Source: an uncultured bacterium (lineage in GTDB: Bacteria; Patescibacteriota; Patescibacteriia; UBA9570; XYC2-FULL-38-9). From it: DNA of 57,222 nucleotides. The position numbers were made by a program, and so were the translations under genes. Numbering within the stretch: the first letter of the stretch is position 1; each line of letters starts with the position of its first letter. This document shows, in pieces, positions 5,843-49,079 of this stretch. The stretch spans positions 1-57,222 of the forward strand of contig CALKUP010000014.1 in the NCBI GenBank assembly GCA_937996685.1, written 5' to 3'. A model generated the notes under the pieces. It searched no databases, was not told the origin of the DNA, and saw nothing but the letters and a program-made list of their open reading frames with translations.

Positions 5843-6571
5843 ATGCCAGCAGCACCGCGCCTGCTTGCCACCCTCCTCGATACATTTTTTCCTCGACGCT
5901 GTGCTCTGTGCGGTGTTTTTGATACCTGGGCTTGTGATTCATGTTTACGGACCGCTTGCACTCCTCGCATCGAACCATGGAATCGTCCTTTCGGCGCAAG
6001 TCGCATATCGCAATCGAGCAAGCTGATTTCACTTGGTTTGTATCACGAACCACTGCTTGCACACCTGATGGATCTGTATAAATTTCATAATGCGCGTGAC
6101 ATCGGAGACACCCTCGGAACGCTCCTTGCTCTTGGAACGCGGCAGTTCATTCAACAACACTACAGCACCGCAAAACCGATTATTCTCATTCCGATTCCAC
6201 TACATCGCAAACGGATTCGAGAACGAGGCTTTAATCAAAACGCTCGCATTGCCCACGCTCTTTTTATGGCACTTGGTGTAGCACAGGCGCAGTACCGTCC
6301 AGATTTGTTACAGCGAACTCGCTATACGACGCATCAAACAACCGTCGCAACAAAAGACCGCGCTGCGAATATCGCCGGAGCATTTGCATTACACCCCGAC
6401 ACAGACCGTACATCTGTTATTACAGGTAGTCATATTCTCCTGATTGACGACATCGCAACAACTGGCGCAACGCTCAACGAAGCCACTCAAGTGATTATGC
6501 AACAACACCCAGCATCAATTGATTATATTACTGCGCTCAGAAGTTCTGCACAGACGGACTTGCAGGAGTAA
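5843..6571 (+). CDS. comFC: ComF family protein (ComFC-like, phosphoribosyltransferase fold)
   Basis: N-terminal Cys pairs (CALCG ... CDSC) and a C-terminal PRTase motif (ILLIDDIATTGATL). Confidence 0.8.
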   Translation: MPAAPRLLATLLDTFFPRRCALCGVFDTWACDSCLRTACTPRIEPWNRPFGASRISQSSKLISLGLYHEPLLAHLMDLYKFHNARDIGDTLGTLLALGTRQFIQQHYSTAKPIILIPIPLHRKRIRERGFNQNARIAHALFMALGVAQAQYRPDLLQRTRYTTHQTTVATKDRAANIAGAFALHPDTDRTSVITGSHILLIDDIATTGATLNEATQVIMQQHPASIDYITALRSSAQTDLQE

Positions 6572-21187: not shown

Positions 21188-22153
21188 CTAATTTGGATCT
21201 GCGTATCCGTCGCCGTCTTCATTTTCTAATTTAGAAAAATGTTGAGGATCTTTAAATTTACCTCCCCAACCCCAACCATTCTTTTTCCAAATTTCCAAAA
21301 AAGCAGGTGGCATGTCTGTTTTGATAGACGATCCTTCTGTATACGGATTTGTTGCTGGATTAATATCAATCGCCACTCCATACGAATGATTTGACGGTCT
21401 TCCTGTGTCATACCAATTACCATTTGCATCTTTCTTTTGTACATTTCGACAATTAAATCCCTCTAATTCACTCCCTCGACTATTATTTAATCCAGCATTA
21501 ATTGGATAAAATTTATCTCCACCCAATCGATTCCATTCCGCATCAACAGCTTTGAGGCTTTTTACAAGATCTTTATGAATCTTTGTTGTCATTCCAAAAA
21601 CACTCACAGTCACAATGTAATCAGGATCTGGCGCTCCAACCTGACACGGTGGAATTGCAATTTTTTCTCCTGAAATTGGCCGGACTAAATACTTAGTACC
21701 GGATTCACACACAGTATCGCCAGGCGCGCATGAGCCAGAATCATCATGATGCGCAGGCGCTGCTGCAATTGGAATCGCAGGATTTGTGGATTGAATTAAT
21801 GCCGGGTTAATAAAGTTCAAAATCATGTATGAACTAAATGCTAACACGATACCAATAATTGCATGCAAGATACCATCCTTGGCTTTTCCAATAATGTCTG
21901 AATTTCCCGCAGCGGCTGCCCATTGAAAACCATGAAACATAATCATCACTGCAGCGATGATGCCGATACTTGAAACAATAAAAATATACAGTCGTGCAAT
22001 ATAATCGGCGAGACCAAGGACAGCATTCGTTTCTCCAAATGGCACTTCAAGTCCAACGTTCACAAGCGGCGCATCTGCAGCAAATGCAATGTGTGGAGCA
22101 AAGAGCATCGCACATCCGATGAGAAACAATTGAATACTGATTATTCTTTTCAT
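21188..22153 (-). CDS. Fusion protein: signal peptide + VirB2/TrbC-type T4SS-pilin-like two-TM module + C-terminal M15 (VanY-like) zinc peptidase
   Basis: Signal peptide ending AFA|AD. Two hydrophobic helices flank a short polar loop (LYIFIVSSIGIIAAVMIMFHGFQW-AAAAGNSDIIGKAKDG-ILHAIIGIVLAFSSYMILNFI). C-terminal SxHxxGxAxD motif (SNHSYGVAID) and a later DPQHF. Confidence 0.7.
   Translation of the reverse strand: MKRIISIQLFLIGCAMLFAPHIAFAADAPLVNVGLEVPFGETNAVLGLADYIARLYIFIVSSIGIIAAVMIMFHGFQWAAAAGNSDIIGKAKDGILHAIIGIVLAFSSYMILNFINPALIQSTNPAIPIAAAPAHHDDSGSCAPGDTVCESGTKYLVRPISGEKIAIPPCQVGAPDPDYIVTVSVFGMTTKIHKDLVKSLKAVDAEWNRLGGDKFYPINAGLNNSRGSELEGFNCRNVQKKDANGNWYDTGRPSNHSYGVAIDINPATNPYTEGSSIKTDMPPAFLEIWKKNGWGWGGKFKDPQHFSKLENEDGDGYADPN
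21771..22073. repeat. 303-bp dispersed direct repeat copy A (pilin-module coding segment)
   Basis: Aligns without gaps to 23148-23450 with about 21 mismatches by manual alignment (about 93% identity). Confidence 0.85.
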
Positions 22154-22157
22154 AAGA

Positions 22158-22607
22158 TTACGGACAATAATGGAAACTCAATTCTTTCCCACTATACTCC
22201 TCATTCACGCTAAATGGAACCCCCATACTTACCTTTAACGCACAAGCATCAGTGGCTGTAATATTAAGAATCTTGAGAAAATCCTGCTCTGCAATTGTTC
22301 GAGCACTTTCAACATTGGGATCGAGCAAGGTAATGATAAAACCATCATCTTTTGGATAATAACTCATCTCATAAGAGCTTGTACGCGCAAATCCCACGCC
22401 ATTTTCTGGATATGTCACAAGAGCACGTCCGTAAATATTTGTCATGAGAATATTTTTTTTGTCTGCTGTAGTGACAGAGAGTTGATTTTTTACAATTGTT
22501 GGCTTGTATTCAATGGATTTCTGATAAAAAAAGAAATACCATACTATTGCAATAGAAAGAAGGATTGTGATAATACTACCTGCGATGATAACTGCTGTTT
22601 TATTCAT
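22158..22607 (-). CDS. Bitopic hypothetical protein (N-terminal TM segment, extracytoplasmic domain with 2 Cys)
   Basis: 149-aa ORF lying 4 nt upstream of the next gene in the operon. N-terminal hydrophobic segment VIIAGSIITILLSIAIVWYFFF. Confidence 0.55.
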   Translation of the reverse strand: MNKTAVIIAGSIITILLSIAIVWYFFFYQKSIEYKPTIVKNQLSVTTADKKNILMTNIYGRALVTYPENGVGFARTSSYEMSYYPKDDGFIITLLDPNVESARTIAEQDFLKILNITATDACALKVSMGVPFSVNEEYSGKELSFHYCP

Positions 22608-22630
22608 ATAAGTATATCAATCTCTTTTTA

Positions 22631-23533
22631 TTAAGGCGTATAATTACATTTTTTATTCGTACTCCATGGTTTCCAATGAGCACCATTACTTGAGATACGG
22701 CAAGCTAATTCAACATTCTTGGTTGCTTCAATAAATTGCGCCTTACATGATTCATAGAGTGGTACATTTTTCACACTACAATCATAATGCTTTTTTCCAT
22801 TTGGGTTTGCGGGATCAGCCACAAGTCCTGGATTTCCATGCCCGTAATTATAGACCTTGTCTTTTTCGCAGCCAGAAATCAAGTATCCATTCGCAATCAT
22901 GTTCACTTGAAAAAGCCCTACCGAAAAGGCTCGCCCATCCGTGCAGACATCCGTCTGACTTTCAATACTTTGTCCACGAGTTTCTGCATTACAGATACCA
23001 GAAGCTTCATTCACATGCGTACCAAAGCAGCCTTTTGAAACAGTTAATAATGTTGCTGGCTCACATGTACCACTGCTCGGAGCCTCACAAACCCCGCCAC
23101 TTGCAGCCGCAACTCCGTTCACTGTTGCGACAGGTGCTCCTGCCTTTGGAATCGCAGGATTTGTGGATTGGATTAAGTTTGGGTTGATAAAGTTTAAAAT
23201 CATGTATGAACTAAACGCTAACACGATACCAATAATTGCATGCAAGATACCATCCTTGGCTTTCCCGATAATATCTGAATTTCCCGCAGCAGCAGCCCAT
23301 TGAAAGCCATGGAACATAATCATCACTGCAGCGATGATGCCGATACTAGAAACAATAAAAATATACAGCCGTGCAATGTAATCAGCGAGACCGAGGACAG
23401 CATTCGTTTCTCCAAATGGCACTTCAAGCCCAACGTTCACAAGCGGCGCATTTTCTGCAAAGGCAATATCTGGCAAGAGCAATGCTATGCAAAACCCAAT
23501 AATAAGGAATGAAGTGGCTGAAAAAAATTTCAT
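22631..23533 (-). CDS. Fusion protein: signal peptide + the same T4SS-pilin-like module + C-terminal lysozyme-like/lytic transglycosylase (SLT/GH23-like) Cys-rich domain
   Basis: The N-terminal 101-aa module differs at 1 residue from the one in 21188-22153. The C-terminus has an ES ... SVGLFQVN arrangement typical of SLT-type muramidases, plus about 11 Cys. Confidence 0.65.
   Translation of the reverse strand: MKFFSATSFLIIGFCIALLLPDIAFAENAPLVNVGLEVPFGETNAVLGLADYIARLYIFIVSSIGIIAAVMIMFHGFQWAAAAGNSDIIGKAKDGILHAIIGIVLAFSSYMILNFINPNLIQSTNPAIPKAGAPVATVNGVAAASGGVCEAPSSGTCEPATLLTVSKGCFGTHVNEASGICNAETRGQSIESQTDVCTDGRAFSVGLFQVNMIANGYLISGCEKDKVYNYGHGNPGLVADPANPNGKKHYDCSVKNVPLYESCKAQFIEATKNVELACRISSNGAHWKPWSTNKKCNYTP
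23148..23450. repeat. 303-bp dispersed direct repeat copy B (pilin-module coding segment)
   Basis: Partner of 21771-22073. The mismatches are almost all synonymous. Confidence 0.85.
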
Positions 23534-23534
23534 G

Positions 23535-24320
23535 TTACTTCCCTAACTCTTCTTCAATCACAGCCTTTAGTGTTTCGTACGATTGCGCGCCACTGAGAAA
23601 GCGACCATTGACATAATAACTCGGCGCTTCTGTCAGCCCTAATGACTGACCAACAAAATAACTTTGCACAACTAATCGCTGAGTTTTTGCACCAGACACA
23701 CAACTACTAAACACATTTGGATCCAAACCAGCCTCTTCTGCGATAGTAGACCATGGTTGTGACGCGAATAATGATTGCTGGGTTAACAACGCATCATGAT
23801 ATTCCCAGAATTTGCCTTGATCTTGTGCGCAACGTGCTGCAATGGCTGCTGTTTGCGCATATTGATGCACTTGTGGCAACGGAAAGTCTTTCCACACATG
23901 TTGTACTGTTCCACTGTATTCATCAACAATTTTTTGCATCGTATCTTTCATTGCAGCACAATTTTCGCATTGAAAATCACCAAACTCGATGATTGTCACT
24001 TTTGGATTTGTCGCTCCCCGTTTTGGATCAGACACCAACGCAACTGGAGCCCCTTTCGAAACCTCAGCCTCGCTCACCTTTGGCACAACTGAAACAAGTG
24101 GGTCAGAACTCGGGGAAACGGTCGCTGTCGGAGTCACAACCAATGATGAATTCACTGGATTATTCGCAAAAAATAATGAAGCAATCGCAAGCACAACAAG
24201 CAATACAATTGCCCCAAGTGTCAATCCAATAAAATACAATCGGGCAGTGTGCTTTGATGGTGTCATTACGATTTTTTCAGAAGATGCTGGCTGGACTGTA
24301 AGCGGTTGATTGGATTCCAT
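23535..24320 (-). CDS. Membrane-anchored DsbA-like thioredoxin-fold thiol:disulfide oxidoreductase
   Basis: N-terminal TM segment, and a CxxC active site in FGDFQCENCA followed by a DsbA-like helical insert. Lies 1 nt from the next gene. Confidence 0.8.
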   Translation of the reverse strand: MESNQPLTVQPASSEKIVMTPSKHTARLYFIGLTLGAIVLLVVLAIASLFFANNPVNSSLVVTPTATVSPSSDPLVSVVPKVSEAEVSKGAPVALVSDPKRGATNPKVTIIEFGDFQCENCAAMKDTMQKIVDEYSGTVQHVWKDFPLPQVHQYAQTAAIAARCAQDQGKFWEYHDALLTQQSLFASQPWSTIAEEAGLDPNVFSSCVSGAKTQRLVVQSYFVGQSLGLTEAPSYYVNGRFLSGAQSYETLKAVIEEELGK

Positions 24321-24325
24321 AAAAA

Positions 24326-25651
24326 TTATTGTAATTTGATTTTGACTAACTGACCACTTGTCGTATCTTGAAAAATCAATTGATTATCTTTTGATACCGT
24401 CATTGAATTTGCATTAACCGCATACACCGCCTCACCCTTAGCATTTACTGGTGTTGCAATTTTTGACTTAATGCCTGTTTTGACATCAATTTTATAAATA
24501 TCATCTGCCACGCCATTTAAAATTCCAGGCTCTAAACCGTATCCATATTTTTGATTGCTCGGCACACCACAATACACCGTTGAGGAATCTTTTGTGAATG
24601 CACATTTATTCGCGAATGTATTCACACCAAGCTCTCGTCGGTTATTTCCAATATTTTCACCATCACTATCAACAATAGTCAGGCTTGGTTTATATTCTGT
24701 CGCAGTTGAATAGACGCTATACAACATTCGCGCGCCATCTTTAGAATACTGACTTTGAAAACCACGACCATCAACAACAGTCCCTTTAAAGTTTTCACGA
24801 TTCAATCCAATAAAACCAATTTCTTGTCGATTCACATCGATGAAGGTTGAAAACGTCGCTGCTACTTTCCCCGTTGGAGACCAGCCCACTTGCACACGAT
24901 CCTGGTTTTCTCCCAACGCCTCTAACGTCTTTGCTTTCGAACCATCCGGGCTACTCATTGCAAGCACACGACGCTCTGGATCTGAATGCATATATTTAAA
25001 TGCGATCTCAGCTCCATCGTTTGAAAAATCAAACTGCTCAAATTCTTTTGGCAATGTGACCTGCTTATTATTACTCAAATTGTAATAGACATTTGCTCCA
25101 TCGGGAAATTCTAAGATCACTTCATTATTCGTTTTTGACCATGTCACCTTTTCAACATTTGCAAACTCACCCGTTCCAATTTGCTGAATCACACCTGCGG
25201 CATCAACGCTGAAAAACTTCCCTGTTTTTGGATCATAATATCTCGATCCATCAACTTGTGAACTTGTACTCGGAGCTGGATCTTGAATTTTTGTATCTGG
25301 AGTGAGAGGTGTTGCTATTGTTTGACCACCACGCGCAACTGCATCAACTCCTGGAAGATTTCCAGTGTTTGTATTTCCATTCCCATTTGTATTCCCGTTA
25401 GAAATATTTGTATTTTTTAAAATATCATTAATATTCGGCAAACCAACCGTGCTATTTGTATTTTGGCTTGCCTGATTACTCGATGACGGCGATCGAAAAA
25501 ATACCCAATAAATCAAAAATAACAACACAATTAAGCCTGCAACAAAACCCCCTATCAGTAGGGCTTGTTTCATGCGGGGTGAAAGTGTGAAATTCATATC
25601 ATGATTAGTGTACCATTTTTTTTGGAAAAATAGAATCTTTAATAGGTACAT
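24326..25651 (-). CDS. Bitopic protein with a TolB-like (PD40/WD40-like) beta-propeller
   Basis: TM segment near the N-terminus, an N/G/T-rich linker, and repeated SPDG/SKDG/SNDG blade motifs. Starts possible at 25651 (13-nt overlap with the upstream gene) or 25597. Confidence 0.65.
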   Translation of the reverse strand: MYLLKILFFQKKWYTNHDMNFTLSPRMKQALLIGGFVAGLIVLLFLIYWVFFRSPSSSNQASQNTNSTVGLPNINDILKNTNISNGNTNGNGNTNTGNLPGVDAVARGGQTIATPLTPDTKIQDPAPSTSSQVDGSRYYDPKTGKFFSVDAAGVIQQIGTGEFANVEKVTWSKTNNEVILEFPDGANVYYNLSNNKQVTLPKEFEQFDFSNDGAEIAFKYMHSDPERRVLAMSSPDGSKAKTLEALGENQDRVQVGWSPTGKVAATFSTFIDVNRQEIGFIGLNRENFKGTVVDGRGFQSQYSKDGARMLYSVYSTATEYKPSLTIVDSDGENIGNNRRELGVNTFANKCAFTKDSSTVYCGVPSNQKYGYGLEPGILNGVADDIYKIDVKTGIKSKIATPVNAKGEAVYAVNANSMTVSKDNQLIFQDTTSGQLVKIKLQ

Positions 25652-26970
25652 CCAGACGCCGAGTACAAGGCATATGCACCACCGACCGCACCAAGTATCG
25701 GGTTAATTATAGCAGCTAATGTAGACACCAGACCAATAGCAGCACTACCTCCTAAACACCCTAGACTCATTAACAAAAACAGAATTCCAAGCGTAAAAAC
25801 AAATACCACTAAAAGCATAAAAATGATAATCATTATTATCCATTTAATGATGGGTGTTTTTGACAAAAGATAGCCTAAAATATACCCAGCAACTGTACCC
25901 CCTGGACCAACAGCTGAACCTGCTGCTGCGAGACCCTCCTCAGCGGCTATTGTTTCTGCTCCTTCTAATGCCGCTGTCTCTCCTGCGCTTACCGCAGCAC
26001 TGCCGGAAACTTCAGCAAGCGCCTTTCCTCCTTTATTCGTGACTAACTTGGCTGCTGCCTTTTCTTTTTGCAAATCACCCGCAACCGCGGATTCATCTTC
26101 TGGTGCAACTGATTGACTCGAACCCGCAGCATCTTCTGACTGCTCTGCATTTTCATTTGAGTCAGATCCCGCATCATCACTTCCGTCTTCAGTGCCCTGT
26201 TCGTTCTCTTTTTCTTCTTGATCTTCATCACCATCTTCAGATTCGTCATCTGCTTCTTCATCATCGTTTTCCTCATCGTTCTTTTTTTCGTCACCGCTCT
26301 CATCTTCAGCTTTTTTTTCTTCATCAACAGCATCACCTGCAGATTCACTTGGCGCTTCTTGCGACAATGGCGCAGGCGCATTTGATTGCGGTGCGGATGT
26401 TGCAGCCGGCGCTTGTGAGCCGGATTCAGGTTGTGTTGTCTTACCCTCAGGCGCATTTCCCGCCTCTTGTTGCGGAGCCGCATCTGAAGCATTATCAGCA
26501 GAAGACTTCGGTGAACTCGCTGGTTGACTTTCAGTTGGCATCGGCGCTGTGCTTGGTGCTTCTTGCGCGCTCGGCTGAGCACTCCCCGGACTTTCAGCAC
26601 GAGGCTCAGACCCTGGCGTCGTCGAAGATGGCTCTGGTTGAGAAATGGGACGCGGCGCGGCTGATCGAGTAGGAGCTCCTGCTTCACCTGCCTGACTCAA
26701 GAGCGCTGCCGCCTGACGCGCTTTTGCAATCTGTCGAGCCTTTTGCAACGCTGCCGCCATTGCGGCTTCCGTCGCAGCTCCTGCAACTTGAGCAGCAGCC
26801 GTTTGACTTGCTCGAGCAATTTCCCCTCCAACATCTTGGAGTCCTTCCTGAATATTCTCCTCAATCGCTTTTGGTACAGCAACATTTAAGACCTCTTGTT
26901 CCAAAGGTTTTTGAATATCTGTATTATCACCTGCCTGTGATAATTCTGCTTCTACATCCGAATCTGCCAT
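25639..26970 (-). CDS. Highly acidic, low-complexity (A/E/D/S/P/Q-rich) protein with C-terminal multi-TM anchor
   Basis: 443-aa ORF in the operon. About 330 aa are predicted disordered, with runs such as DEENDDEEADDESEDGDEDQEEKENEQ, followed by about 3 hydrophobic segments at the C-terminus. Confidence 0.55.
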   Translation of the reverse strand: MADSDVEAELSQAGDNTDIQKPLEQEVLNVAVPKAIEENIQEGLQDVGGEIARASQTAAAQVAGAATEAAMAAALQKARQIAKARQAAALLSQAGEAGAPTRSAAPRPISQPEPSSTTPGSEPRAESPGSAQPSAQEAPSTAPMPTESQPASSPKSSADNASDAAPQQEAGNAPEGKTTQPESGSQAPAATSAPQSNAPAPLSQEAPSESAGDAVDEEKKAEDESGDEKKNDEENDDEEADDESEDGDEDQEEKENEQGTEDGSDDAGSDSNENAEQSEDAAGSSQSVAPEDESAVAGDLQKEKAAAKLVTNKGGKALAEVSGSAAVSAGETAALEGAETIAAEEGLAAAGSAVGPGGTVAGYILGYLLSKTPIIKWIIMIIIFMLLVVFVFTLGILFLLMSLGCLGGSAAIGLVSTLAAIINPILGAVGGAYALYSASGCTY

Positions 26971-26993
26971 GAAATAGTACTAACGAATAAATG

Positions 26994-27611
26994 TTATTGC
27001 CACGCAATTTGATCAACTTTCCATGAACCATCACTATAGACCATATTCACTAATACATCTTGGGTGAATGTTTTTTGTTCGGTGTCACCTTTTGTTTCTG
27101 AACGTTGCGTGGAAACACGCACTTGCGCTGCTTTTTGTTCAGTGTATTTATCCGCCTTTAAAGACAATACCGTTGTTGTGATGCCATAAAATGGATCTGT
27201 CTCTTTTTTATTAGCTGTTGCATTTTTTGCAATATACGCATCACTTTCACGTTGAAAACCACTTGTCATAAATGGCTGTACGTTTGTAATATTTTCAAAA
27301 TTATTACGATTACTATAGGTTCCGTATCGCTCAATAAACACGCGCGCTACCCGCAACGCTGCGGCCGCATCATTTGTTGATAGCTTTGTTGTATTTGTAT
27401 TTGCAACAGGCGCAGCAGTATTTGTATTAGTTGTTGGCGCTGCTGTAGTGACTGGCACACCTTGATTCACCACAATCGCTGTATTCGTATTTGTTGTTAC
27501 AGTCGGTGCTGGTGCTGTATTACGAAAAAAGAAATACCACACGAGTCCACCAATCACAGTAACTGCGAGGACTCCTCCAACGATAGATAGAATAATAGTT
27601 CGTCGTGTCAT
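26994..27611 (-). CDS. Bitopic protein, VirB8/TcpC-like (NTF2-like) candidate
   Basis: ATG at 27611. N-terminal TM segment, a T/N-rich linker, and a domain of about 125 aa ending DGSWKVDQIAWQ, which resembles an NTF2-like fold. Lies immediately downstream of VirB4. Confidence 0.45.
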   Translation of the reverse strand: MTRRTIILSIVGGVLAVTVIGGLVWYFFFRNTAPAPTVTTNTNTAIVVNQGVPVTTAAPTTNTNTAAPVANTNTTKLSTNDAAAALRVARVFIERYGTYSNRNNFENITNVQPFMTSGFQRESDAYIAKNATANKKETDPFYGITTTVLSLKADKYTEQKAAQVRVSTQRSETKGDTEQKTFTQDVLVNMVYSDGSWKVDQIAWQ

Positions 27612-27632
27612 AAGAATCAATCACTAATAATA

Positions 27633-29675
27633 TTAAAGGATAGGGTTATTTTGCTGATTTTGCAATTGCGCTATTTGCTCATCTGAAGCCGCAGCGCTTT
27701 GTTCTGCACTTTCCATTGCGAGCAACTGACGTGGATCTGAAGTAATAATCTTATCTTCAATCGGAGACGCGACCACTTGCATCGCAACGTGTTTTTGCCC
27801 TGCAAAGAAAATGCCTTGCCCGACACTTCCTTCAAGGAGTAAATATTTTTCACTATCTGTGAGTAAAAATATTTTTTGGATGTTATCAATAGCAGCCGGA
27901 GACTGTTTCAGCAACATTTGCATTGCTGAGTTGGTCACAATCGCCGCGCCATATGGTGAGCGCAAAAAGTCATTCACATCTTGCGTAATCGTTGTGACAC
28001 CAAGATAGTATTTACGGCATCGTTTGACTAATGCATAAATAAATTTCGCTGAATCTTCGTTTTGCATTAACCACCAGGCTTCATCAATCACCAAAATACG
28101 TTTCTTTAATTCAGATCGCACTGTGTTCCAGATATAGTTCACAATCATGTAAATCGCAATCGGTCGCAACTCATCTTCTAAATCACGGACAGAAAAAACC
28201 GTTAATTGATTTTTTGTATCAATATTTGTTGGTGAATTCAGCAAACCAGCAAAGGTTCCTTCTGTGTATTTTTTCAAACGGATCACCATGTTCGTTGTTC
28301 CGTCAAAACCTTCCAAAATATCAATAAAGTCTTGCATAATCGGCGCCTCAACTTTTGATAAATCAGCGTCAGGTGTAATATCTTTTTTCGCGTAGGTTTC
28401 AATTAATGCACGATCCAAAATCGAATCTTCTGCCGCAGAGACTTCTCCAAGCATGACACGAAGCAAGCCTTTGATTGTAATCACCGCAGACCGAATAATG
28501 TCAGCCGGGCGATCGGCTCCACCAACAGGTCGCGGTAAATCAAACGGATTAATTTTCACATCAGAATTCAACGAGATATTCACAAATGAACCACCAACTG
28601 AATCAGACAAATGCTTGTACTCATTTTCTGGGTCGATCACCATCACATCCGTGCCCATCATGAGCGAACGCAAGATTTCGAGTTTGACCGTATAACTTTT
28701 TCCAGCACCAGACGTCGCAAACACGACGGCATTTGCATTTTGCAATGAAAAGCGATCAAAAATAATCAAGCTGCCATTATGCCGATTCACGGCATACATA
28801 ATTCCGCTGTCAGAAGTCAGGTCAGATGAAATAAACGGAAATGACGACGCAACTGGCGAGCTATTCATATTGAAGTAAATCGACAACTCATCAAGCCCAA
28901 GCGGCATTGTTGAATGAAAGCCTTGTTCTGCTTGGTAAAAACCACGTTTTGCGAGCACGAGTCGACTGCCGAATAATGTATCCAATTCATCAATTCGGTC
29001 ATTCAGTTCTTTTTCCGAATCAGCATAGACTGACACATATAATGCATATTGAAAAAACTTTTCTGTTCCTTGGGTGAGTGAGTCACGCAACTCTTCGATA
29101 TCTCGCAAGGCTGTTTCACGAATTGGGTCACGCGGCGCTCCTTTGTCTCGATCAGACACGATCGTTGCTTCCAACTCACCAACCTTTTTCTTTAATTGGC
29201 GCAAAATAATATCCGATTTTACTGGATAAAAGAACATACTGATATCAAGCTCCTTGTTCATCATGATGATTTGCGAAAACCATCCAACACTGACATAGCG
29301 CGGATATGACACCACAAACATTGTACTGACCAATTTTCCTCCAAGATCAACAAATCGCGCCTCGACATTCATCGCAGCTGGAGCGATTAAATCAAGAACG
29401 GTTGTAATTCCTTTACGATACACTTGTGCTGCCTCAATAATTTCAGCAGTTTCATTTTGTTTCTTTTTTCTCGCGGGCGGAAGATCACTAACCACATCAT
29501 CAGACACTGTCACCTTTTCAGATAAGCCTTGCAAGAAACCACTGTCATTTTGCAACATTGCTGTATCGCCTGTTTCTGGTTTTGGCACTTCTAACTCCTC
29601 AGCGTCAACGACAATATTCTTCGTCGTGTCTGCGAATTGCTCCGGTTGTGGTTTTTTCTTTAAAAAATCAAACAT
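27633..29675 (-). CDS. VirB4/TraC/PrgJ-type T4SS ATPase
   Basis: Walker A in VVFATSGAGKSYT and Walker B in RILVIDEAWWLM. The N-terminal domain pattern (VVSYPRYVSVGWFSQII) is typical of Gram-positive VirB4 homologues. Confidence 0.85.
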   Translation of the reverse strand: MFDFLKKKPQPEQFADTTKNIVVDAEELEVPKPETGDTAMLQNDSGFLQGLSEKVTVSDDVVSDLPPARKKKQNETAEIIEAAQVYRKGITTVLDLIAPAAMNVEARFVDLGGKLVSTMFVVSYPRYVSVGWFSQIIMMNKELDISMFFYPVKSDIILRQLKKKVGELEATIVSDRDKGAPRDPIRETALRDIEELRDSLTQGTEKFFQYALYVSVYADSEKELNDRIDELDTLFGSRLVLAKRGFYQAEQGFHSTMPLGLDELSIYFNMNSSPVASSFPFISSDLTSDSGIMYAVNRHNGSLIIFDRFSLQNANAVVFATSGAGKSYTVKLEILRSLMMGTDVMVIDPENEYKHLSDSVGGSFVNISLNSDVKINPFDLPRPVGGADRPADIIRSAVITIKGLLRVMLGEVSAAEDSILDRALIETYAKKDITPDADLSKVEAPIMQDFIDILEGFDGTTNMVIRLKKYTEGTFAGLLNSPTNIDTKNQLTVFSVRDLEDELRPIAIYMIVNYIWNTVRSELKKRILVIDEAWWLMQNEDSAKFIYALVKRCRKYYLGVTTITQDVNDFLRSPYGAAIVTNSAMQMLLKQSPAAIDNIQKIFLLTDSEKYLLLEGSVGQGIFFAGQKHVAMQVVASPIEDKIITSDPRQLLAMESAEQSAAASDEQIAQLQNQQNNPIL

Positions 29676-29690
29676 ATATATTCACTTCCG

Positions 29691-30401
29691 TTACTTAGCG
29701 TCCCAATCAATGTTCATTTGATCAGTGTCTGGCAATCCACCACTTGTCACTGAATGTGGGTTATACGTATTATAGTACAACTCAATTAATGACTGTGTAT
29801 CTAATACAGTACTTTGCAGACCAATACTTGATAAACCGCCTACAACCTGGGAAACACGACGATCGAGCTCAAGTGAATATTTTTCAAATGATTTTTGTGA
29901 CAGTGTAATACTTGAAGACGGATTAAACACCTCGCCAAAACGATTCCAAAATGATTTCTTTCCCTTTTGGCTTGGAGAATATGGCACGACGACATAAAAC
30001 TTTTTTTCCATAATCTTCGCATCATTGACGAGCGCTTGAATAAAAAGCTGATAACTTTCTGTTTGTTCGCGCAGTAATTCGTTTGTTTGATCGTTTTTTA
30101 ATTGCTCAATTTTTTTCAAATATTGTTCAATATTTAACGGGCGAGATTGGATCACAATTTGTAATTCAAAGTCTAATGTATTTAAAAACGACACATATCC
30201 TTGAATAATCCCTTGTTGCTCGTCTTGTGATTTCAACGCAAAATTCAAACTTCCAACCAATAATACACGACGCAATGTTCCATCTTTCATCATCACAATG
30301 CCATCACGAATTTCACGAAACGGAATATATCGCTGAGTCGGCGGGGTTTTTGGATTCGTGCGTTTGACTGCACGTTTTTTTGGTTCGGTATTTTTCGCCA
30401 T
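29691..30401 (-). CDS. Hypothetical protein resembling a stand-alone VirB4/TraC N-terminal domain
   Basis: The stretch YIPFREIRDGIVMMKDGTLRRVLLVGSLNFALKSQDEQQGIIQGYVSFLNTL resembles the N-terminal substrate/membrane-proximal domain of conjugative VirB4 ATPases. No P-loop. Confidence 0.45.
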   Translation of the reverse strand: MAKNTEPKKRAVKRTNPKTPPTQRYIPFREIRDGIVMMKDGTLRRVLLVGSLNFALKSQDEQQGIIQGYVSFLNTLDFELQIVIQSRPLNIEQYLKKIEQLKNDQTNELLREQTESYQLFIQALVNDAKIMEKKFYVVVPYSPSQKGKKSFWNRFGEVFNPSSSITLSQKSFEKYSLELDRRVSQVVGGLSSIGLQSTVLDTQSLIELYYNTYNPHSVTSGGLPDTDQMNIDWDAK

Positions 30402-30406
30402 ACAAT

Positions 30407-30856
30407 TTAATTTTTTGTTTCAGTCGTCTCAACAGTTTCACCACGATACACTCCTCCAGTATCAACGAGAAGTGACATTTCTGCAAGCCGTGATGCAGTT
30501 GCTGGTGCTTTTGGGGCTGGCGCTTTTGATTGCATCTCATCGATTTTCACTTCTTTTTCTCGAGATATTTCACGCTTCCACACGCGCATTCCCGGCTTTC
30601 GAAATGTTTGAAACAAATTCAACAACACATAATGCATTGATTGTCCGTTGATTTTAATAAACGCTAATGCACCACCAAGTCCAAATGTAATCGCAATAAG
30701 TGGCAAAAAAAGATATGGTGATTGGAAGATTGTAAAAAAGACATAGCACAAACCAAATGTCACCAGCATAATCACAAATTGCCGTCCTGAAATTGGACCA
30801 ATGATTTTGGTCTCAACCTCAATAAATTGTGGGACAACAAATTGATTATTACGCAT
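30407..30856 (-). CDS. PrgI family (VirB3-like) small membrane protein
   Basis: N-terminus VPQFIEVETKIIGPISGRQFVIML followed by two TM segments, as in PrgI/VirB3-like proteins. Position is two genes upstream of VirB4, with the 29691-30401 gene in between. Confidence 0.7.
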   Translation of the reverse strand: MRNNQFVVPQFIEVETKIIGPISGRQFVIMLVTFGLCYVFFTIFQSPYLFLPLIAITFGLGGALAFIKINGQSMHYVLLNLFQTFRKPGMRVWKREISREKEVKIDEMQSKAPAPKAPATASRLAEMSLLVDTGGVYRGETVETTETKN

Positions 30857-30858
30857 AC

Positions 30859-33141
30859 TTAAAATCGAAGGGATCTATTTAATGCTGCGACTGCTTCAAA
30901 TTCTGCGAGCGATAACACCTCTTCACGGCGTTGTTGTGCTTGCTCAATATATTGATTGACTGGCATGCCCTGCGAGAGACTACTGTTACCAATTGACACA
31001 TACAGCTGATGCACCGGACTTGTTTGCCATGCACGAATCGCTTCGGCTTTTTTTGCAATGGACTCTTGGGCTTGTAAATCAATTTTTTGACGAATGAAGG
31101 TGGTGGCTTTTTCTGGATTCACACCAAATGAACGCAGCTCTGTAAGACTAAATTGCTGCAACTCTTCCACCGGCCCGATAGTACGTTGTCGCGCGCTGGC
31201 AATACCAGATTGCTGCACTGGACGCATGCTGTCCATTCGACGAATTGGAGAATCCGTTAATGGATCGACAGATTTTTGTCGCATTTGCGCTACATCAAGA
31301 TTTGCAAAAATATCTTCAACTGGCACACTTGTCGATTGTTGCGGGACCGCAGGCACAGCCGCCGGGACTGGAACTTCTGTTGTAAACATATTCTCTCCTG
31401 CATCCTGCTCTTGTTGTACCGTTGATGCTACTTGGCGTTTTTTTGTCTCTTCAAATAAATCTTGACGTTGCATTAATTCTTGGACTTGTGCAAATGTCGG
31501 CGTCGGCTTTTGAACCGATTGCGTTTTTCCAGTCGCTCGCAACACAGGCACATCTTCTGCGTGCACAAAACGCTCCGCTGTATTCAAACAACTACTTGCA
31601 ATGTCAGCTGTCATATTCACACCACCGGACTCAATTGGAGTAACCAGTGTTTGCATCACTTCTTCACGTGTTCGATCCCCTTTTGCAAAGGACGCGATTA
31701 AACTCAAGAATCGATTTTCAGCGTCAACACTTTCAAGCAACAACGCGTGTTCAGCCAGTACTTCTTGTGCCAGCGTTTCATAATCAATGCCTTCTTTTGG
31801 CTGCGGTTGCATTTTTGGAGCTACAACAGGCACCGGTGACTCAATTACAGAAGTCACTGGCTTTGGAGACGTAATTGGTTGTTGTGGCACCACAGGTATT
31901 GGAGCAGGCGCTGCCGTTGGGATTGGCGGCAGATCTGGCATTACTGTTGATTCAGCTGGTTGCATTGGCACAACCGGTTGAGCCGGCTTAGTAACTGACA
32001 ATGGAGCGGCGGCAAGAGACGGTGATACAGTAACAGGAGTTTGCGGTTTCACAACAGGCTTTATCGGACTCGGCTTTGACACTTCTTGTTTCACAGGCAA
32101 TTCTACAACCGACTCATCAAACATATCAGGCACAACTTTTTGCGGCGCTTTCGGCGCTGGAGTTGCAACCGGCATTTCAACACGCGGCGTGGATGCCGCA
32201 ACTGGAGTCGCATCAACGGCAACACTCTCTACAGCAGGAGTTGTGTTACGCGCAATTTCTCGACGCAATTCCTCACTACGAGACAACTGTTCTTCGAGAA
32301 TCGGTGTCATTGAAATTTCCGCTTCTGCAAGTTGTTTATCAAATTCCTGCACACGCTTTTGAATATCTCGCAACGCTTCTTCTTTTTCTTCTGGGGTCAT
32401 TTTTGCAACAATATCTGATTCAATTCCGGTGTCGATTTCTTTTCCGTGATCAATATATTTAATATGACCACTTTCAATATCATGATAAATAACCGTATCT
32501 TCATTCCCTGCCGGAGTAAGTGACGACAAGCCCATTGCATTGTAAAATCGAAATAACCCTTCTAATTTTTCACGCTCATCACTAGAAAGATTTGCAACAT
32601 TTGGAGAGGTGTTGAGATATTGCGTGAACACCAATTGATCATTCGGATTTTTCCCATCTGCAAATAATTCAAAATCATGGATCCAGTTTTGGACGGTTCC
32701 GAATGAACGAACACCATTAATTGTAATTTGTTTTTTTGAAAGCCTATACACAGATGTGCTAATTGCATCGCGAATATCTTTTTTTAACGCATCTCTATCT
32801 GCAAGATCAATAAAAGAAGCTAGCATTTGATTGATATTTTTCAGCAACGTATCTGCTGGGTACTCAAAAAAGTATTCGAAGTATTCACGAAAGAGCTTCC
32901 GAACAATCATTGGCACCTGCCATTGCAATAAAAACCATTCTAACCGAGCAAGAGCGGTATTATATTTTTTCGTCGCTGATGTGCCATAATATTGAATATA
33001 TTCACTATTATTTTTTATATATTCTGAAAGCTCGTAACGAAATTCATTCGCAAGTTCACTATGATTATTTCCAGCATCAATAAAACCAGCGATTCTTGCT
33101 TCGACTTCTTCAATTGATTCTAGCACCTTCTTCTCTATCAT
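30859..33141 (-). CDS. 760-aa hypothetical protein with a central Pro/Val/Ala/Gln-rich linker, no signal peptide or TM segment
   Basis: Long ORF in the operon, 2 nt from the next gene. A proline-rich segment of about 150 aa (PVATPAPKAPQKVVP ... PIPVVPQQPITSPKP) separates two globular regions. Confidence 0.55.
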   Translation of the reverse strand: MIEKKVLESIEEVEARIAGFIDAGNNHSELANEFRYELSEYIKNNSEYIQYYGTSATKKYNTALARLEWFLLQWQVPMIVRKLFREYFEYFFEYPADTLLKNINQMLASFIDLADRDALKKDIRDAISTSVYRLSKKQITINGVRSFGTVQNWIHDFELFADGKNPNDQLVFTQYLNTSPNVANLSSDEREKLEGLFRFYNAMGLSSLTPAGNEDTVIYHDIESGHIKYIDHGKEIDTGIESDIVAKMTPEEKEEALRDIQKRVQEFDKQLAEAEISMTPILEEQLSRSEELRREIARNTTPAVESVAVDATPVAASTPRVEMPVATPAPKAPQKVVPDMFDESVVELPVKQEVSKPSPIKPVVKPQTPVTVSPSLAAAPLSVTKPAQPVVPMQPAESTVMPDLPPIPTAAPAPIPVVPQQPITSPKPVTSVIESPVPVVAPKMQPQPKEGIDYETLAQEVLAEHALLLESVDAENRFLSLIASFAKGDRTREEVMQTLVTPIESGGVNMTADIASSCLNTAERFVHAEDVPVLRATGKTQSVQKPTPTFAQVQELMQRQDLFEETKKRQVASTVQQEQDAGENMFTTEVPVPAAVPAVPQQSTSVPVEDIFANLDVAQMRQKSVDPLTDSPIRRMDSMRPVQQSGIASARQRTIGPVEELQQFSLTELRSFGVNPEKATTFIRQKIDLQAQESIAKKAEAIRAWQTSPVHQLYVSIGNSSLSQGMPVNQYIEQAQQRREEVLSLAEFEAVAALNRSLRF

Positions 33142-33165
33142 AATCCCTTTGTTGAATAGCTGATT

Positions 33166-36100
33166 TTATACATAACCTTGCTCGTCTTTTTCACCCAGCT
33201 CTACACTATCATCTCCTGCTACAGCCTCAGCTGTTTTTTTAGCTGTTGCAGCCGCAGTACGAGTAATCAGTTTTTTGTTGTATGGAGCAAATTTTTCCAA
33301 AAAGTCTTGCGTGAAACCCGTTCCATCTGGAGCTTTGTGGTTCAAAAACAATGTTGTTGGAGTAACAGGAACGCTTGGAAGACCTGCCGCACTCGTTATT
33401 GCATCAGCTGCTTTTTGCCGCTCTTTATCCCTTTCTTGCCTTATTTGATCAATAGCAATTTCACGCGCAAAAACCTCTCGAGTTGCCGGGTCCATTTTTT
33501 TAAGGTCTAAATCATTTTGACTACGAATGTAATTATCAAGAACACCTTTATTGACGTCTGTAACATTACCGTCCATATCTCTTGAAAACGGCATGTTCCA
33601 ATCTTTTCCTGCTAACGCAAGCGCATTCTTAGGACTAGACAGCATTCCCTGCAGTATTCTAATCATCTCAGGACTATTCATTCGATATCCATTTTGGTTA
33701 AAATCAAATACCCCCATTGCGCCACCACGATCATTGCCTTTTTCAAGATTTGCCAACACTGACATTTGACGATACGCTTCTTGTTGAGAGAAACCACCAT
33801 TAGAAGAAAACCAAGAAGCAAGCAAGCGCCAAAGGTCACTACTAGTATCATAGACCATTCCGACCTTATTCGCTGCAATCGCTGCCTTTAAAGCAGCTGG
33901 ATCATTTTTTAATTCGTCTGAAATTTGTGTGTATTCTTTTTTGCCGTCTACAGTAGTTGTAAATTTTGGCGCGCCCGTTGTTTCATCAAGTTCATACATT
34001 TTTGTTCCTAAATCAGCTCCAAGCAACGCTGTTTGCTTACGAAAATCTGGATTCGACTCTGCGGCTTGTTGTAAAAACTTTGGAATCGCCCACCCACCAG
34101 CTCCCAAGGATACCAATTTTCTTAAAATAGCTGATGTAACAAAACCATTACCGGAGATTAATGCATTAGTAAATGACTCTTGCAATTGCGGAACCTCTAA
34201 ACCATCTAAACCTTTCGAAGCCTCTGAAATTCGTTGATCACTCAGCGCCGCAGCTCCAATAGCTCTATAACCTCGAGTTCGCAACACTTCCCGCTCATAT
34301 GCATCTTTTGTCTGAGTAGCGGTTTTCTTGCGGCCTTCCGCATCAGCAACAGCTTTTGTCCTCTCAGCTCTCTGACTTAAGAGGTCAGTGAAAGTCTCTA
34401 AAGAGTCAACTCCAGCGGCCTTTGCTGCATTTTTTTTCTGCTCTTCTAATTGAGCTTTTTTCGCCAATCTAGCCGCCTTGTCTACCTGTCCTGGCTTTGC
34501 AAATCCAACACCTAAAGCTCCTAATAGAGCATCGCTTACATCACCAGTCGCGATAGTTTTGGCTCCTGCATTTATTAAATCTAAAAGTTTTTTTGACTCC
34601 GCAGGATCAGTTGCTGGATCTGACGCCCGATCTTCTACTATTTCTCGAATAGCCTTATCTTGAATATCTATTGAACCACTAGCCTTCAGTCTCGCAATTA
34701 TTTGATCTGCCGTTTCTGGCTCTGAAGGGTCAATATTTCCAATTGCTTCATCTGCATCTGCTATTATTTTTTGTGCATTTTCCAATAAGGCTAATTTTTC
34801 AGGGCTAATTCCTTGGTCTGCATCAAATTGTTCTACTAATCTTTTCTGATGTGCAAGTTCATCATTCGCCCTTTCAATCGCTTTCTTGTTCTCTTCCATT
34901 TGTTTATTTTCCCTGGATTCTTGACCAATAAAAGGAAGAGCCTTAAACATTTTAAGGCCTAATACTTCATTCAAGAGAATATTTTTCAACGTCACCCCTT
35001 CCACATATTGAGTTCCCCCTTCTGTTGTCGCTCCAAACATTGCACCTATAGCACGAGTTGCTGCATTACGACGACCTGTTGTCATCACACCCGCTAATTC
35101 TTGCGCTCCTTGCGCAGAGGCGTTTGCGCGTGTTTTTGCATTTGCATCTAAAGCATTTTTTACATTTGTTGCTGAACCTTTAACGTCCATTAAATTACCC
35201 ACCATATCAAGGCCGGTACCAAAAAAACGCAGAGCTCCAGTACCAAGTGAATTATTTACATACTTTCCTTCCTCATCTGTTTCAGAAGCACCAAAAGAAC
35301 CTCGTATGCCAGAACCAAGACTTGAAACCATTTGTGAACCACGAATGACCCCTGAATTGACCAAAGAACCGGCCGCAGCGGATGCTTTTCCGGTATATTC
35401 TCCAATTTCACCAGACATTCCTGATGTAAATTTCAATGCAGCTGACAACATGATAAAGCCAATAAGGTAATTTGCCAAAATACTTGGATTTGTCGATCCG
35501 TACTGGGAACTTGACTGAGAATTCAACTGAGTCAATGCTGTTGTTGTTGCGTTACTTGCTTTAGTTAATGATTGAACATTTGTTAATCCTTGAGTCAAAG
35601 GATTCGCAATTGCACCACCAAGACCACCTGCGCTAGTCCCGACAGCAGCTCCATTCATCATTGTTAGTGTCAGCCATAAAAAAAATGTCATGAATGGACC
35701 CAGGATAATGTATCGTCCCCACATTTCCCACCACTGAGTGGAATATCGTTTTGTAACATCTAAAATACGTGTGATATACGCAAGCGGAGACAGGACAATT
35801 AATACCCATAATAATACAATCCGAGCAATCAACATCACAACAAAAACCGTTAAAATCACAAATGCTGAAAACTGCAAAAATGCCGCGATGATAACAGCTC
35901 CAGTCGCCTCATAAGAAAGGGAAGCAGCAGTACCGGTAACACCAGCAGAGTCTGTAAAACCACCACTACTAAAAAAATTTCCTAGCGCGGGTGCGCCTAA
36001 ACCTGCAAGAACGCCTCCTCCCCATGAACCGCCAATGCTCCCACCAAATGTCGCCATTGCCACATTTGCCGCATCAGTAAAAAAACCACAAATGGTTTTA

Positions 36101-36672
36101 CTAAAATTAATGAGTACTGCGTATAAAATAAATTTCCGCAATAAATCCTGCCATTTGTAACTCTCCAGATTCAGGACCGCTGCAAGAGCAATAATTAAAA
36201 GAATAATCGCAAAAAACAAATTACAAATATCACGCACAATACGCCAACCTGTGACAACTGAGGTAACATTAATATATCCCCCGGGAGCCGATCCGGCAGT
36301 TACCCAAAAATCACCCCATGGATATTCAATGACAACATCAAGAATAGCTGCCACAATAGATGATAAAGCTCCACATAATATATACAACAAACTTGCAACT
36401 AACGAGATAATAAATGTTATAGGAGACGAGAGTCCTTCGGCAAGAGTGATAGCATTTGCCTGCTCTGCAAATGAACCAAGGTTAAACGCATACATAATCC
36501 CGCCAATAGCAGCGAGACTCACAACGCTAATCCCAGCTCCGTACAAAAAACGTTTACCGAAACGACGAATTTTTTGTTTGGCAAATTGAAAAATGTGATC
36601 AATATCACCAATCGTTTCAGTCAGACGTTCATAGGTGAACATCAAGCGTAATCGCACTATAAAATCTTGCAT
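33166..36672 (-). CDS. VirB6/TrbL-like polytopic membrane protein with a C-terminal extension of about 700 aa
   Basis: At least 7 hydrophobic segments in the first 430 aa or so, with G-rich loops, then a long hydrophilic, partly coiled-coil-like region. It is the first gene of the T4SS-like operon. Confidence 0.55.
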   Translation of the reverse strand: MQDFIVRLRLMFTYERLTETIGDIDHIFQFAKQKIRRFGKRFLYGAGISVVSLAAIGGIMYAFNLGSFAEQANAITLAEGLSSPITFIISLVASLLYILCGALSSIVAAILDVVIEYPWGDFWVTAGSAPGGYINVTSVVTGWRIVRDICNLFFAIILLIIALAAVLNLESYKWQDLLRKFILYAVLINFSKTICGFFTDAANVAMATFGGSIGGSWGGGVLAGLGAPALGNFFSSGGFTDSAGVTGTAASLSYEATGAVIIAAFLQFSAFVILTVFVVMLIARIVLLWVLIVLSPLAYITRILDVTKRYSTQWWEMWGRYIILGPFMTFFLWLTLTMMNGAAVGTSAGGLGGAIANPLTQGLTNVQSLTKASNATTTALTQLNSQSSSQYGSTNPSILANYLIGFIMLSAALKFTSGMSGEIGEYTGKASAAAGSLVNSGVIRGSQMVSSLGSGIRGSFGASETDEEGKYVNNSLGTGALRFFGTGLDMVGNLMDVKGSATNVKNALDANAKTRANASAQGAQELAGVMTTGRRNAATRAIGAMFGATTEGGTQYVEGVTLKNILLNEVLGLKMFKALPFIGQESRENKQMEENKKAIERANDELAHQKRLVEQFDADQGISPEKLALLENAQKIIADADEAIGNIDPSEPETADQIIARLKASGSIDIQDKAIREIVEDRASDPATDPAESKKLLDLINAGAKTIATGDVSDALLGALGVGFAKPGQVDKAARLAKKAQLEEQKKNAAKAAGVDSLETFTDLLSQRAERTKAVADAEGRKKTATQTKDAYEREVLRTRGYRAIGAAALSDQRISEASKGLDGLEVPQLQESFTNALISGNGFVTSAILRKLVSLGAGGWAIPKFLQQAAESNPDFRKQTALLGADLGTKMYELDETTGAPKFTTTVDGKKEYTQISDELKNDPAALKAAIAANKVGMVYDTSSDLWRLLASWFSSNGGFSQQEAYRQMSVLANLEKGNDRGGAMGVFDFNQNGYRMNSPEMIRILQGMLSSPKNALALAGKDWNMPFSRDMDGNVTDVNKGVLDNYIRSQNDLDLKKMDPATREVFAREIAIDQIRQERDKERQKAADAITSAAGLPSVPVTPTTLFLNHKAPDGTGFTQDFLEKFAPYNKKLITRTAAATAKKTAEAVAGDDSVELGEKDEQGYV

Positions 36673-36695: not shown

Positions 36696-36724
36696 ATTAT
36701 ACAATATTTTTTGTTTTCCGCCAA
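36696..36724 (-). promoter_or_regulatory. Sigma70-like promoter of the T4SS-like operon
   Basis: On the minus strand: TTGGCG, 17 nt, TATAAT. The -10 box lies 23 nt upstream of the ATG. It shares an 18-nt block with the promoter at 49980-50009. Confidence 0.5.
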
Positions 36725-38609: not shown

Positions 38610-38622
38610 GGGGCTGAAAAAT

Positions 38623-49069: not shown

Positions 49070-49079
49070 AAAATGCAAA

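Follow-up and report, generated by a model that had tools for sequence, protein, structure and literature searches.

Contig CALKUP010000014.1 of an uncultured patescibacterium encodes a genuine Gram-positive-type type IV secretion system (T4SS), which is a further example from the class ABY1 of the chromosomal system already published for Patescibacteria. Its operon occupies positions 21188-36672 of the window, the 57,222-nucleotide (nt) stretch analyzed here, which is the entire contig, with the rest of the genome outside view. Twelve tightly packed open reading frames (ORFs) run along the minus strand and encode, in order from 36672 down, proteins of 1168, 760, 149, 236, 680, 208, 443, 441, 261, 300, 149 and 321 amino acids (aa), with junctions ranging from a 13-nt overlap (25639-25651) up to a 24-nt gap (33142-33165). 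An earlier sequence-only reading had placed twelve minus-strand genes at these positions with junctions in this range, and the ORF list and its coordinates agree. ORFs of at least 100 aa over the whole 57 kb were scanned against Pfam and NCBIfam families using curated cut-offs. This profile hidden Markov model check, which the earlier reading had proposed, placed the T4SS pilin, PrgI and VirB4 families above their cut-offs, and Peptidase_M15_4, SLT_3 and Thioredoxin_4/DSBA also passed theirs.

The system type, the missing relaxase, the pilins, the chromosomal position, the ABY1 linkage to comF, recG and radA, and the import hypothesis are all already published (PMC10633639, PMC12102498). A survey of 3,035 Patescibacteria genomes described a monophyletic VirB4 clade nested in the MPF_FATA type, with TrsD, PrgI, VirB6 and PF18895 pilins widespread in the group and VirB8 homologs reported almost solely in ABY1, whose loci commonly include comF, recG and radA (Quinonero-Coronel 2025, PMC12102498). 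The same study proposed that these systems import DNA or other macromolecules, and a 2025 review takes up its points again. The window shares with the ABY1 systems of that survey VirB4 and a TrsD-like protein, PrgI/VirB3, PF18895 pilins, VirB8 and a weakly supported VirB6-like protein, the lack of a relaxase or coupling protein near virB4, the chromosomal setting and the nearby comF, recG and radA genes, and nothing essential differs. Absent from the survey's main text are the cysteine-rich tails, often hydrolases, on every pilin module, the recurrence of a DsbA protein and a PD40 propeller, and a conserved 760-aa protein encoded before prgI.

The second published point of comparison is Southlakia epibionticum ML1, whose T4SS (SEML1_0006-0019) is essential and Gram-positive-like, with pilins and no recognizable coupling protein or relaxase (Wang 2023, PMC10633639). 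Its genes follow the order VirB6-like ... PrgI, small protein, VirB4, then wall hydrolases, with an NTF2-like protein also present, and the hydrolases carry M15-like DD-peptidase and lysozyme-like domains as they do in the window. In contrast to the operon described here, the S. epibionticum locus belongs to Saccharimonadia and adjoins dnaA, and its pilins are encoded by six short genes of their own on the other strand. No pilin domain has been reported for its large hydrolases, whereas the window's pilins are fused to hydrolases, and only the window has DsbA, a PD40 propeller and radA in line. Essentiality in S. epibionticum was determined by transposon sequencing (Tn-seq), and the NTF2-like gene there is non-essential.

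A conserved core around a split VirB4

The central gene of the operon encodes a VirB4 ATPase of the Gram-positive (MPF_FATA) type (680 aa; 27633..29675, minus strand), as the sequence-only reading had recognized from its Walker A (SGAGKS) and Walker B (DEAWW) motifs, both of which are intact in the sequence. The protein matched the Pfam families P-loop_TraG (E 2.5e-29) and AAA_10 and scored 336 bits against the NCBIfam VirB4 CD1110 family (cut-off 325), aligning to model positions 177-734. Its closest solved relative is PDB 4AG5, the VirB4 of the Firmicute Thermoanaerobacter (E 5.5e-44). A VirB4 scan using one genome per species confirmed 344 relatives, and the 80 nearest loci, with VirB4 identities of 64-87%, were kept for comparison.

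Next upstream of virB4 is a gene for a stand-alone VirB4 N-terminal domain (TrsD-like, 236 aa; 29691..30401, minus strand), with homologs in 80/80 related loci. As had been suspected, it matched the N-terminal parts of NCBIfam VirB4 models (VirB4_plasma positions 97-265, E 1.3e-11; CD1110 VirB4 positions 1-119, E 4.4e-9) as well as TrsD (E 6.4e-6), while a PDB sequence search with it returned no relative. Because the 236-aa protein aligns to the N-terminal portion of these models and the 680-aa protein to CD1110 positions 177-734, the two together read as a split VirB4. The PrgI/VirB3-like protein encoded just upstream of it (149 aa, two membrane segments; 30407..30856, minus strand) was likewise anticipated from the sequence and matched PF12666 at 32.8 bits against a cut-off of 27, with PrgI found in 77 of the 80 loci.

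On the other side of virB4 lies the gene for a bitopic protein of 208 aa (26994..27620, minus strand; 205 aa from the ATG at 27611), which had been put forward as an NTF2-like VirB8/TcpC candidate with a call for structural modeling. An AlphaFold2 model built from a 26-sequence alignment had a mean predicted local distance difference test (pLDDT) score of 79, rising above 90 in the folded domain, and comprised an N-terminal membrane helix (residues 3-30) that a disordered linker separates from an NTF2-like domain of helices and a four-stranded sheet. Solved VirB8 proteins ranked first when this model was searched with Foldseek, led by CagV (6iqt; E 5e-6, template-modeling (TM) score 0.66) and PrgL of pCF10 (7aed; E 7e-5), with R388 TrwG/VirB8, DotI and TraH of pIP501 also among the top matches. 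A profile search against PDB sequences gave no sequence-level match. The model thus indicates that this protein, which has homologs in 70/80 related loci, adopts the VirB8 fold. In four loci, L071:10334-11197 and L073:12510-13382 (plus strand) among them, the VirB8-like gene is followed by one for a membrane-anchored protein with a metallo-beta-lactamase fold (Lactamase_B, E 1e-20).

The two longest proteins head the operon. The 1168-aa protein (33166..36672, minus strand) may be an extended VirB6-like protein, with about 6-7 membrane segments predicted within the first 420 aa and a hydrophilic domain of about 750 aa after them. Its identification as VirB6/TrbL-like held in part: the membrane segments are there and the TrbL/VirB6 Pfam family was found in 4/30 members of the 1168-aa family, but scores were weak throughout (best E 4e-4), the window protein had no Pfam match of its own, and its match to the NCBIfam Mbov_0396 integrative conjugative element (ICE) membrane family (transmembrane) reached E 0.0019. 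Homologs were found in 43 of the 80 loci, many of which are cut off upstream, and where present always lie upstream of the 760-aa gene.

The 760-aa protein (30859..33141, minus strand) has no membrane segment, and a composition scan agreed with its description as proline-rich. Besides its proline-rich linkers it has a conserved motif in the middle and, at the C-terminus, a domain of about 120 aa that is likewise conserved. It had no Pfam, NCBIfam or PDB sequence match, and a single-sequence homolog search with the C-terminal part found one match, its relatives coming with an alignment query. AlphaFold2 modeled the C-terminal 130 aa as an all-helical fold (pLDDT 88), for which Foldseek found no match among PDB and viral structures (best E ~1-2). 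Since a homolog occurs in 69/80 loci, directly before prgI, we describe it as a conserved cytoplasmic component without known relatives. Profile searches with the 1168-, 760-, 441- and 208-aa families against PDB sequences gave low-complexity or chance matches only.

Comparison of the 80 loci with the window proteins by tblastn showed that the core order VirB6-like, 760-like, PrgI, TrsD-like, VirB4, VirB8-like is kept in nearly all of them, and that a more variable module with pilin fusions, propeller and DsbA comes after it. The synteny comparison suggested from the sequence therefore found the core gene order kept across 80 species-level genomes. Records for these loci are titled Kerfeld-, Falkow-, Uhr-, Magasanik- or Buchananbacteria, generic Patescibacteria, or other taxa, and the five named groups we take to be class ABY1 in GTDB. 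An origin in Saccharibacteria was considered and rejected, the VirB4 relatives being Kerfeldbacteria-like/ABY1. Many public bins with this clearly patescibacterial locus, L001, L003 and L005 among them, bear titles such as Bdellovibrionales, 'uncultured Gammaproteobacteria', Nanoarchaeota, Binatia or Methylomirabilis, which are probably taxonomic mislabels or contaminant contigs.

Taken with systems such as pCF10 Prg/Pcf, pGO1 Trs, C. difficile CTn2 CD1110 and pIP501 Tra, the operon shares a VirB4 at the level of CD1110, PrgI, a TrsD-like protein, a VirB8 fold as in PrgL and TraH, and lytic-transglycosylase and peptidase wall hydrolases. The system derives from this MPF_FATA conjugation machinery of Gram-positive bacteria and is not a conjugative element. 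Unlike the window, those systems are plasmid- or ICE-borne, have a relaxase, a coupling protein of the PcfC/TcpA type and an origin of transfer (oriT), and lack the VirB2-type pilins that the window has as pilin modules.

Near-identical pilin modules carrying different wall hydrolases

Two proteins of the variable module join a VirB2-like pilin module to a cell-wall hydrolase, in line with the sequence-only reading. In the 321-aa protein (21188..22153, minus strand), PF18895 (30.7 bits, cut-off 26.6) is followed by an M15 (VanY-like) zinc peptidase domain (Peptidase_M15_4, 57.7 bits) with intact metal-ligand motifs SNHSYGVAID and QHF. In the 300-aa protein (22631..23533, minus strand), a pilin module made of a signal peptide and two membrane helices (PF18895, 30.0 bits, cut-off 26.6) precedes a lysozyme-like SLT_3 domain (PF18896, 32.5 bits) in a tail with 10 cysteines.

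At the DNA level the two pilin modules are direct repeats of 300 nt (21754-22053 and 23131-23430) that share 92% nucleotide identity. Of the 100 codons, 18 differ synonymously and 1 non-synonymously, indicating that the mature pilin modules are kept identical by selection while bearing different enzymes. The identity starts just past the predicted AFA signal-peptide cleavage site, and the signal peptides themselves differ. Near-identical mature modules would fit assembly of both into a single structure, or a docking site that they share. Such modules with different enzyme tails are unusual, given that the published survey found at most 54% identity between pilins of the same array (PMC12102498), and we did not find protein-identical pilin modules despite 18 synonymous differences stated in PMC10633639 or PMC12102498.

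PF18895 matched 25/25 pilin-module proteins of the related loci, and each of the 25 has a C-terminal tail, 155-348 aa long with 3-22 cysteines; about 10 of the tails are recognizable as SLT, SLT_3, M15 or VanY hydrolases. The cysteine-rich tail on every pilin module is also not found stated in either PMC10633639 or PMC12102498.

Two further genes of the module encode candidate partners for these tails. The protein flagged from the sequence as a DsbA-like oxidoreductase (261 aa; 23535..24320, minus strand) is a thiol oxidase of the DsbA type, anchored in the membrane and with CENC at its active site (Thioredoxin_4 E 2.2e-25, DSBA E 9e-17), and its gene is present in 29 related loci, where it co-occurs with pilin-module proteins. 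Next to it is encoded a membrane-anchored 441-aa protein (24326..25651, minus strand) that had been called a PD40 beta-propeller. That assignment stood at the family level, with PD40 matched in 11/21 relatives (best E 1e-6) and 12/21 matching a beta-propeller family, but not for the window protein itself, which had no Pfam match. Residues C349 and C360 of the propeller are invariant, and the gene is found in 23 loci beside the DsbA and pilin genes. The cysteine-rich pilin tails and the propeller cysteine pair would be fitting substrates for the co-encoded DsbA.

A comparable pairing is known from F-type T4SS operons, which encode the thioredoxin-fold disulfide-handling proteins TrbB and TraF. 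These parallel the window's DsbA, although they belong to a different thioredoxin subfamily and T4SS class and work in a Gram-negative envelope. F-type pili also require only VirB4 as ATPase.

The remaining members of the operon are lineage-specific or nearly so. The 443-aa protein (25639..26970, minus strand) is acidic (D+E 16.9%, K+R 5.4%), predicted to be disordered and has 2-3 C-terminal membrane segments, so that composition and membrane-segment scans agreed with its earlier description as an acidic disordered membrane protein. Its only sequence homolog among the 80 loci is in L001, and about 12 other loci have, at the same position, a protein that ends in a membrane hairpin. The second 149-aa protein (22158..22607, minus strand), bitopic with two cysteines and one N-terminal membrane segment, had no Pfam or NCBIfam match and no homolog in the 80 loci.

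One rival reading is that the twelve genes are not one functional system. The pilin-like modules could be membrane anchors, with the hydrolase, DsbA and propeller genes serving ordinary wall remodeling beside the T4SS. This would suit the finding that the pilin/propeller/DsbA module is missing or relocated in many loci and sometimes inverted relative to virB4, as well as the promoter-like sites inside the operon, for example at 25262. We nonetheless consider it improbable: PF18895 is a T4SS pilin family that matches every one of the 25 proteins, rearranged copies of the module still lie no more than 10 kb from virB4, its junctions in the window are overlaps or gaps of 1-23 nt, and the equivalent hydrolases and pilins of S. 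epibionticum are essential genes of its T4SS locus.

A chromosomal system without conjugation genes

No coupling protein, VirB11, relaxase, integrase or replication family was found among the ORFs of at least 100 aa in the 57 kb, in agreement with the earlier statement that none of these, VirD4-type ATPases included, occurs on the contig. Att-like flanking direct repeats were looked for around the operon and none were found. The flanks hold housekeeping genes (RadA, RecG, LeuRS and KsgA), the nearest tRNA genes are 9 kb from the operon, and GC content is even across the operon region. Gene order kept in 80 genomes by housekeeping genes, even GC content and the absence of att-like repeats together indicate a vertically inherited rather than an integrated element. 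These results support the proposal, made from the sequence, that the operon is a chromosomal, non-conjugative use of the T4SS scaffold. An ICE was rejected on the same grounds of no integrase, no att repeats and conserved gene order.

In one of the 80 loci a coupling-protein-like gene (TrwB_AAD_bind, T4SS-DNA_transf, TraG-D_C) does stand beside the system, at L077:2607-4220 (plus strand). It lies directly upstream of a shortened VirB6-like gene (487 aa), and its product seems to be without an N-terminal membrane anchor. Neither the window nor any other of the loci gave a tblastn match to this sequence.

The operon might instead be the mating-pore half of a conjugative or mobilizing system that exports DNA to other cells, with the relaxase, coupling protein and oriT elsewhere in the genome. 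Most of the genome lies outside this one 57-kb contig, the L077 locus shows that a coupling-protein-like gene can adjoin the VirB6-like gene, and coupling-protein (VirD4-like) homologs occur in 2,918 Patescibacteria genomes, mostly distant from virB4 (PMC12102498). Yet only 103 of the 3,035 Patescibacteria genomes surveyed were found to have a relaxase, and in S. epibionticum the coupling-protein homolog is non-essential whereas the T4SS is essential (PMC12102498). Housekeeping gene order kept in 80 species and a highly conserved VirB4 also point to vertical inheritance, and the window has neither an integrase nor att repeats. We therefore regard an export role in conjugation as highly improbable.

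Linkage to DNA-processing genes

The co-directional run had been taken to end at 21188. It continues: radA/sms (19818..21149; Pfam KaiC, AAA_25, zinc ribbon and Lon_C) begins on the same minus strand 38 nt downstream. A terminator-like site was searched for in this gap and none was found, so the transcription unit may count thirteen genes with radA as the last. A promoter-like site (TTGGCG-17-TATAAT; 36696..36724, minus strand) was indeed present in the 66-nt gap upstream of the 1168-aa gene, where it had been noted as the only one, but it is not the sole site, as a scan of the window found equal-scoring minus-strand sites at 36767, 35478, 32987 and 25262. Promoter-like sites in the window totaled 53 compared to 40.7 +/- 6.3 in shuffles, about 2 standard deviations above, a margin at which the scan cannot pick out any single site, the one at 36696-36724 included. 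Terminator-like sites were at expectation (20 compared to 18.8 +/- 4.8 in shuffles), so these scans cannot delimit the transcription unit.

RadA is encoded downstream of the T4SS in 26/45 loci whose flank is 8 kb or longer; several arrangements occur, inverted blocks among them. Convergent with radA in the window is recG (17760..19805, plus strand; Pfam RecG_wedge and DEAD), and RecG was found in 33 of the 80 related loci. A comFC-like gene (5843..6571, plus strand; Pfam Pribosyltran) encodes a CxxC..CxxC zinc finger and a phosphoribosyltransferase motif. In 31/80 loci ComFC comes directly after the VirB8-like gene, often overlapping it, an arrangement that was not found stated in PMC10633639 or PMC12102498. 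Together with a ComM-like magnesium-chelatase-family ATPase (56022-57200), the comFC, recG and radA genes place four genes for processing or recombination of transforming DNA on one 57-kb contig. In the related loci no linkage between a ComM-like gene and the T4SS was seen.

The lack of a coupling protein and relaxase, along with the class-level ties to comFC, radA and recG, led us to rank uptake first among possible roles. Our leading guess, held tentatively and at somewhat less than an even chance, is thus that the system takes up DNA or other host macromolecules, either at the cell surface or where the cell meets its host. A known system of this kind is ComB of Helicobacter pylori, which is chromosomal, has VirB2, B3, B4, B6 and B8 equivalents and is without VirD4, VirB11 and a relaxase. 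ComB acts upstream of ComEC and ComFC in transformation, and its import direction is proven. The window likewise has a VirB2/B3/B4/B6/B8 set, the VirB6 member being weak, with no VirD4, VirB11 or relaxase on the contig. ComB differs in serving a two-membrane cell with a VirB7/9/10 outer-membrane core, an MPF_T-type VirB4 and no hydrolase-fused pilins; the window had no family match to a VirB7/B9/B10 core, as expected for a single-membrane cell. The window system, for its part, is genetically linked to comFC, radA and recG.

The split VirB4 (236 + 680 aa), PrgI/VirB3, the VirB8-fold protein and the extended VirB6-like protein very likely form a core in the cytoplasmic membrane, accompanied by the 760-aa cytoplasmic protein. 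An outward-facing module very likely consists of the two pilin modules bearing the M15 peptidase and the lysozyme-like domain, the PD40 propeller, and DsbA, which would oxidize the many cysteines of that module. VirB4 could extract the pilin modules from the membrane to build a short pilus or wall-spanning conduit, and the pilin-fused hydrolases could cut peptidoglycan, either the cell's own or that of a host cell. If the operon serves uptake, incoming single strands would then be handed to ComFC, RadA and RecG, by analogy with ComB. The Lactamase_B protein encoded after the VirB8-like gene in four loci recalls the nuclease-like C-terminal domain of ComEC and is a possible further link to DNA.

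Several observations weigh against uptake, and against DNA as the substrate in particular. In the window comFC sits 15 kb from the operon, and the adjacency of comFC, radA and recG could reflect inherited gene order alone rather than function. No ComEC, ComEA or DprA was found on the contig. The C-terminal domain of the 760-aa protein showed no nucleic-acid-binding fold by AlphaFold2 and Foldseek, and support for a VirB6 component is weak. Wall hydrolases on pilin modules fit a breach of the host envelope for any purpose, not for DNA specifically, and pilin modules with tails of about 180-200 aa may be mere membrane anchors for enzymes. In S. epibionticum, moreover, the T4SS is essential yet a comEC deletion is viable (PMC10633639; 2025 review), so its essential role there is not ComEC-dependent DNA uptake.

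The most specific form of the uptake idea is that the conjugation-derived T4SS of ABY1 has turned into a DNA-import organelle serving a single-membrane cell, in which VirB4 builds a filament of identical pilin modules carrying different disulfide-stabilized hydrolases that cut the host or prey envelope, with DNA passing to ComFC, RadA and RecG. We think this unlikely.

A possible host-directed role

The same parts could instead make a contact apparatus directed at a host, exporting protein or serving as a nutrient conduit, in which pilin-borne hydrolases drill through the host wall and the substrate is something other than DNA. The S. epibionticum findings favor this reading: the homologous system is essential for epibiotic growth while competence (comEC) is not, an M15-like DD-peptidase and a lysozyme-like domain, both also in the window, are essential at that locus, and the authors suggested protein export or an alternative role (PMC10633639).

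A surface protein encoded upstream is of interest in this respect. At 39125..49078 (minus strand) lies a gene for a giant protein of 3317 aa, predicted to be secreted, with an N-terminal hydrophobic segment, 110 cysteines and a CBM_4_9 domain (Pfam), and homologs are encoded upstream of the VirB6-like gene in 13 loci. This recurrent cysteine-rich protein may be an adhesin, perhaps one missed by the published survey, and would fit an apparatus for host contact.

Host-directed export would, however, face several difficulties. Neither the window nor 79/80 related loci have a coupling protein for cytoplasmic substrates, Sec-exported proteins need no T4SS in a single-membrane cell, no effector candidates were identified, and the linkage to comFC, radA and recG would be left unexplained. 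We judge a host-contact apparatus plausible and only a little less likely than uptake, which we retain as the leading guess.

Other features of the contig

Between the giant-protein gene and the operon is a gene for a DUF6909 protein (36739..38358, minus strand; E 1.5e-137) with no solved relative. It was considered as a part of the system and rejected, as a homolog was found in 0/80 related loci, and it appears to be an insertion specific to this lineage and separate from the T4SS. The only sizeable plus-strand ORF within the long minus-strand run, at 38440-38985, encodes a basic protein (K+R 16%) with no family match and overlaps a 170-aa minus-strand ORF at 38490-39002. An Rfam scan of the window found three tRNAs only: tandem tRNA-Ser genes (anticodons GCT and TGA) at 11498-11742, which form a diverged duplication, and a tRNA-Arg gene 0.6 kb away. 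A 226-aa ORF at 11640-12320 is probably spurious because it overlaps a tRNA-Ser gene.

Significance for Patescibacteria

Much of the diversity of uncultured bacteria belongs to Patescibacteria, which seem to depend on other cells for their living, and their T4SS is nearly universal in the group and essential in the one species tested. This contig opens no new question about the system but is a clean, complete ABY1 example that sharpens an existing one. It shows wall-hydrolase function fused to pilin modules, a DsbA and propeller set, and a tight linkage to genes for processing single-stranded DNA, and these features yield testable predictions for the published import hypothesis. If that hypothesis holds for DNA in the form outlined above, neither a conjugative-type pilus decorated with hydrolases nor DNA import through a T4SS in a monoderm bacterium would have a precedent.

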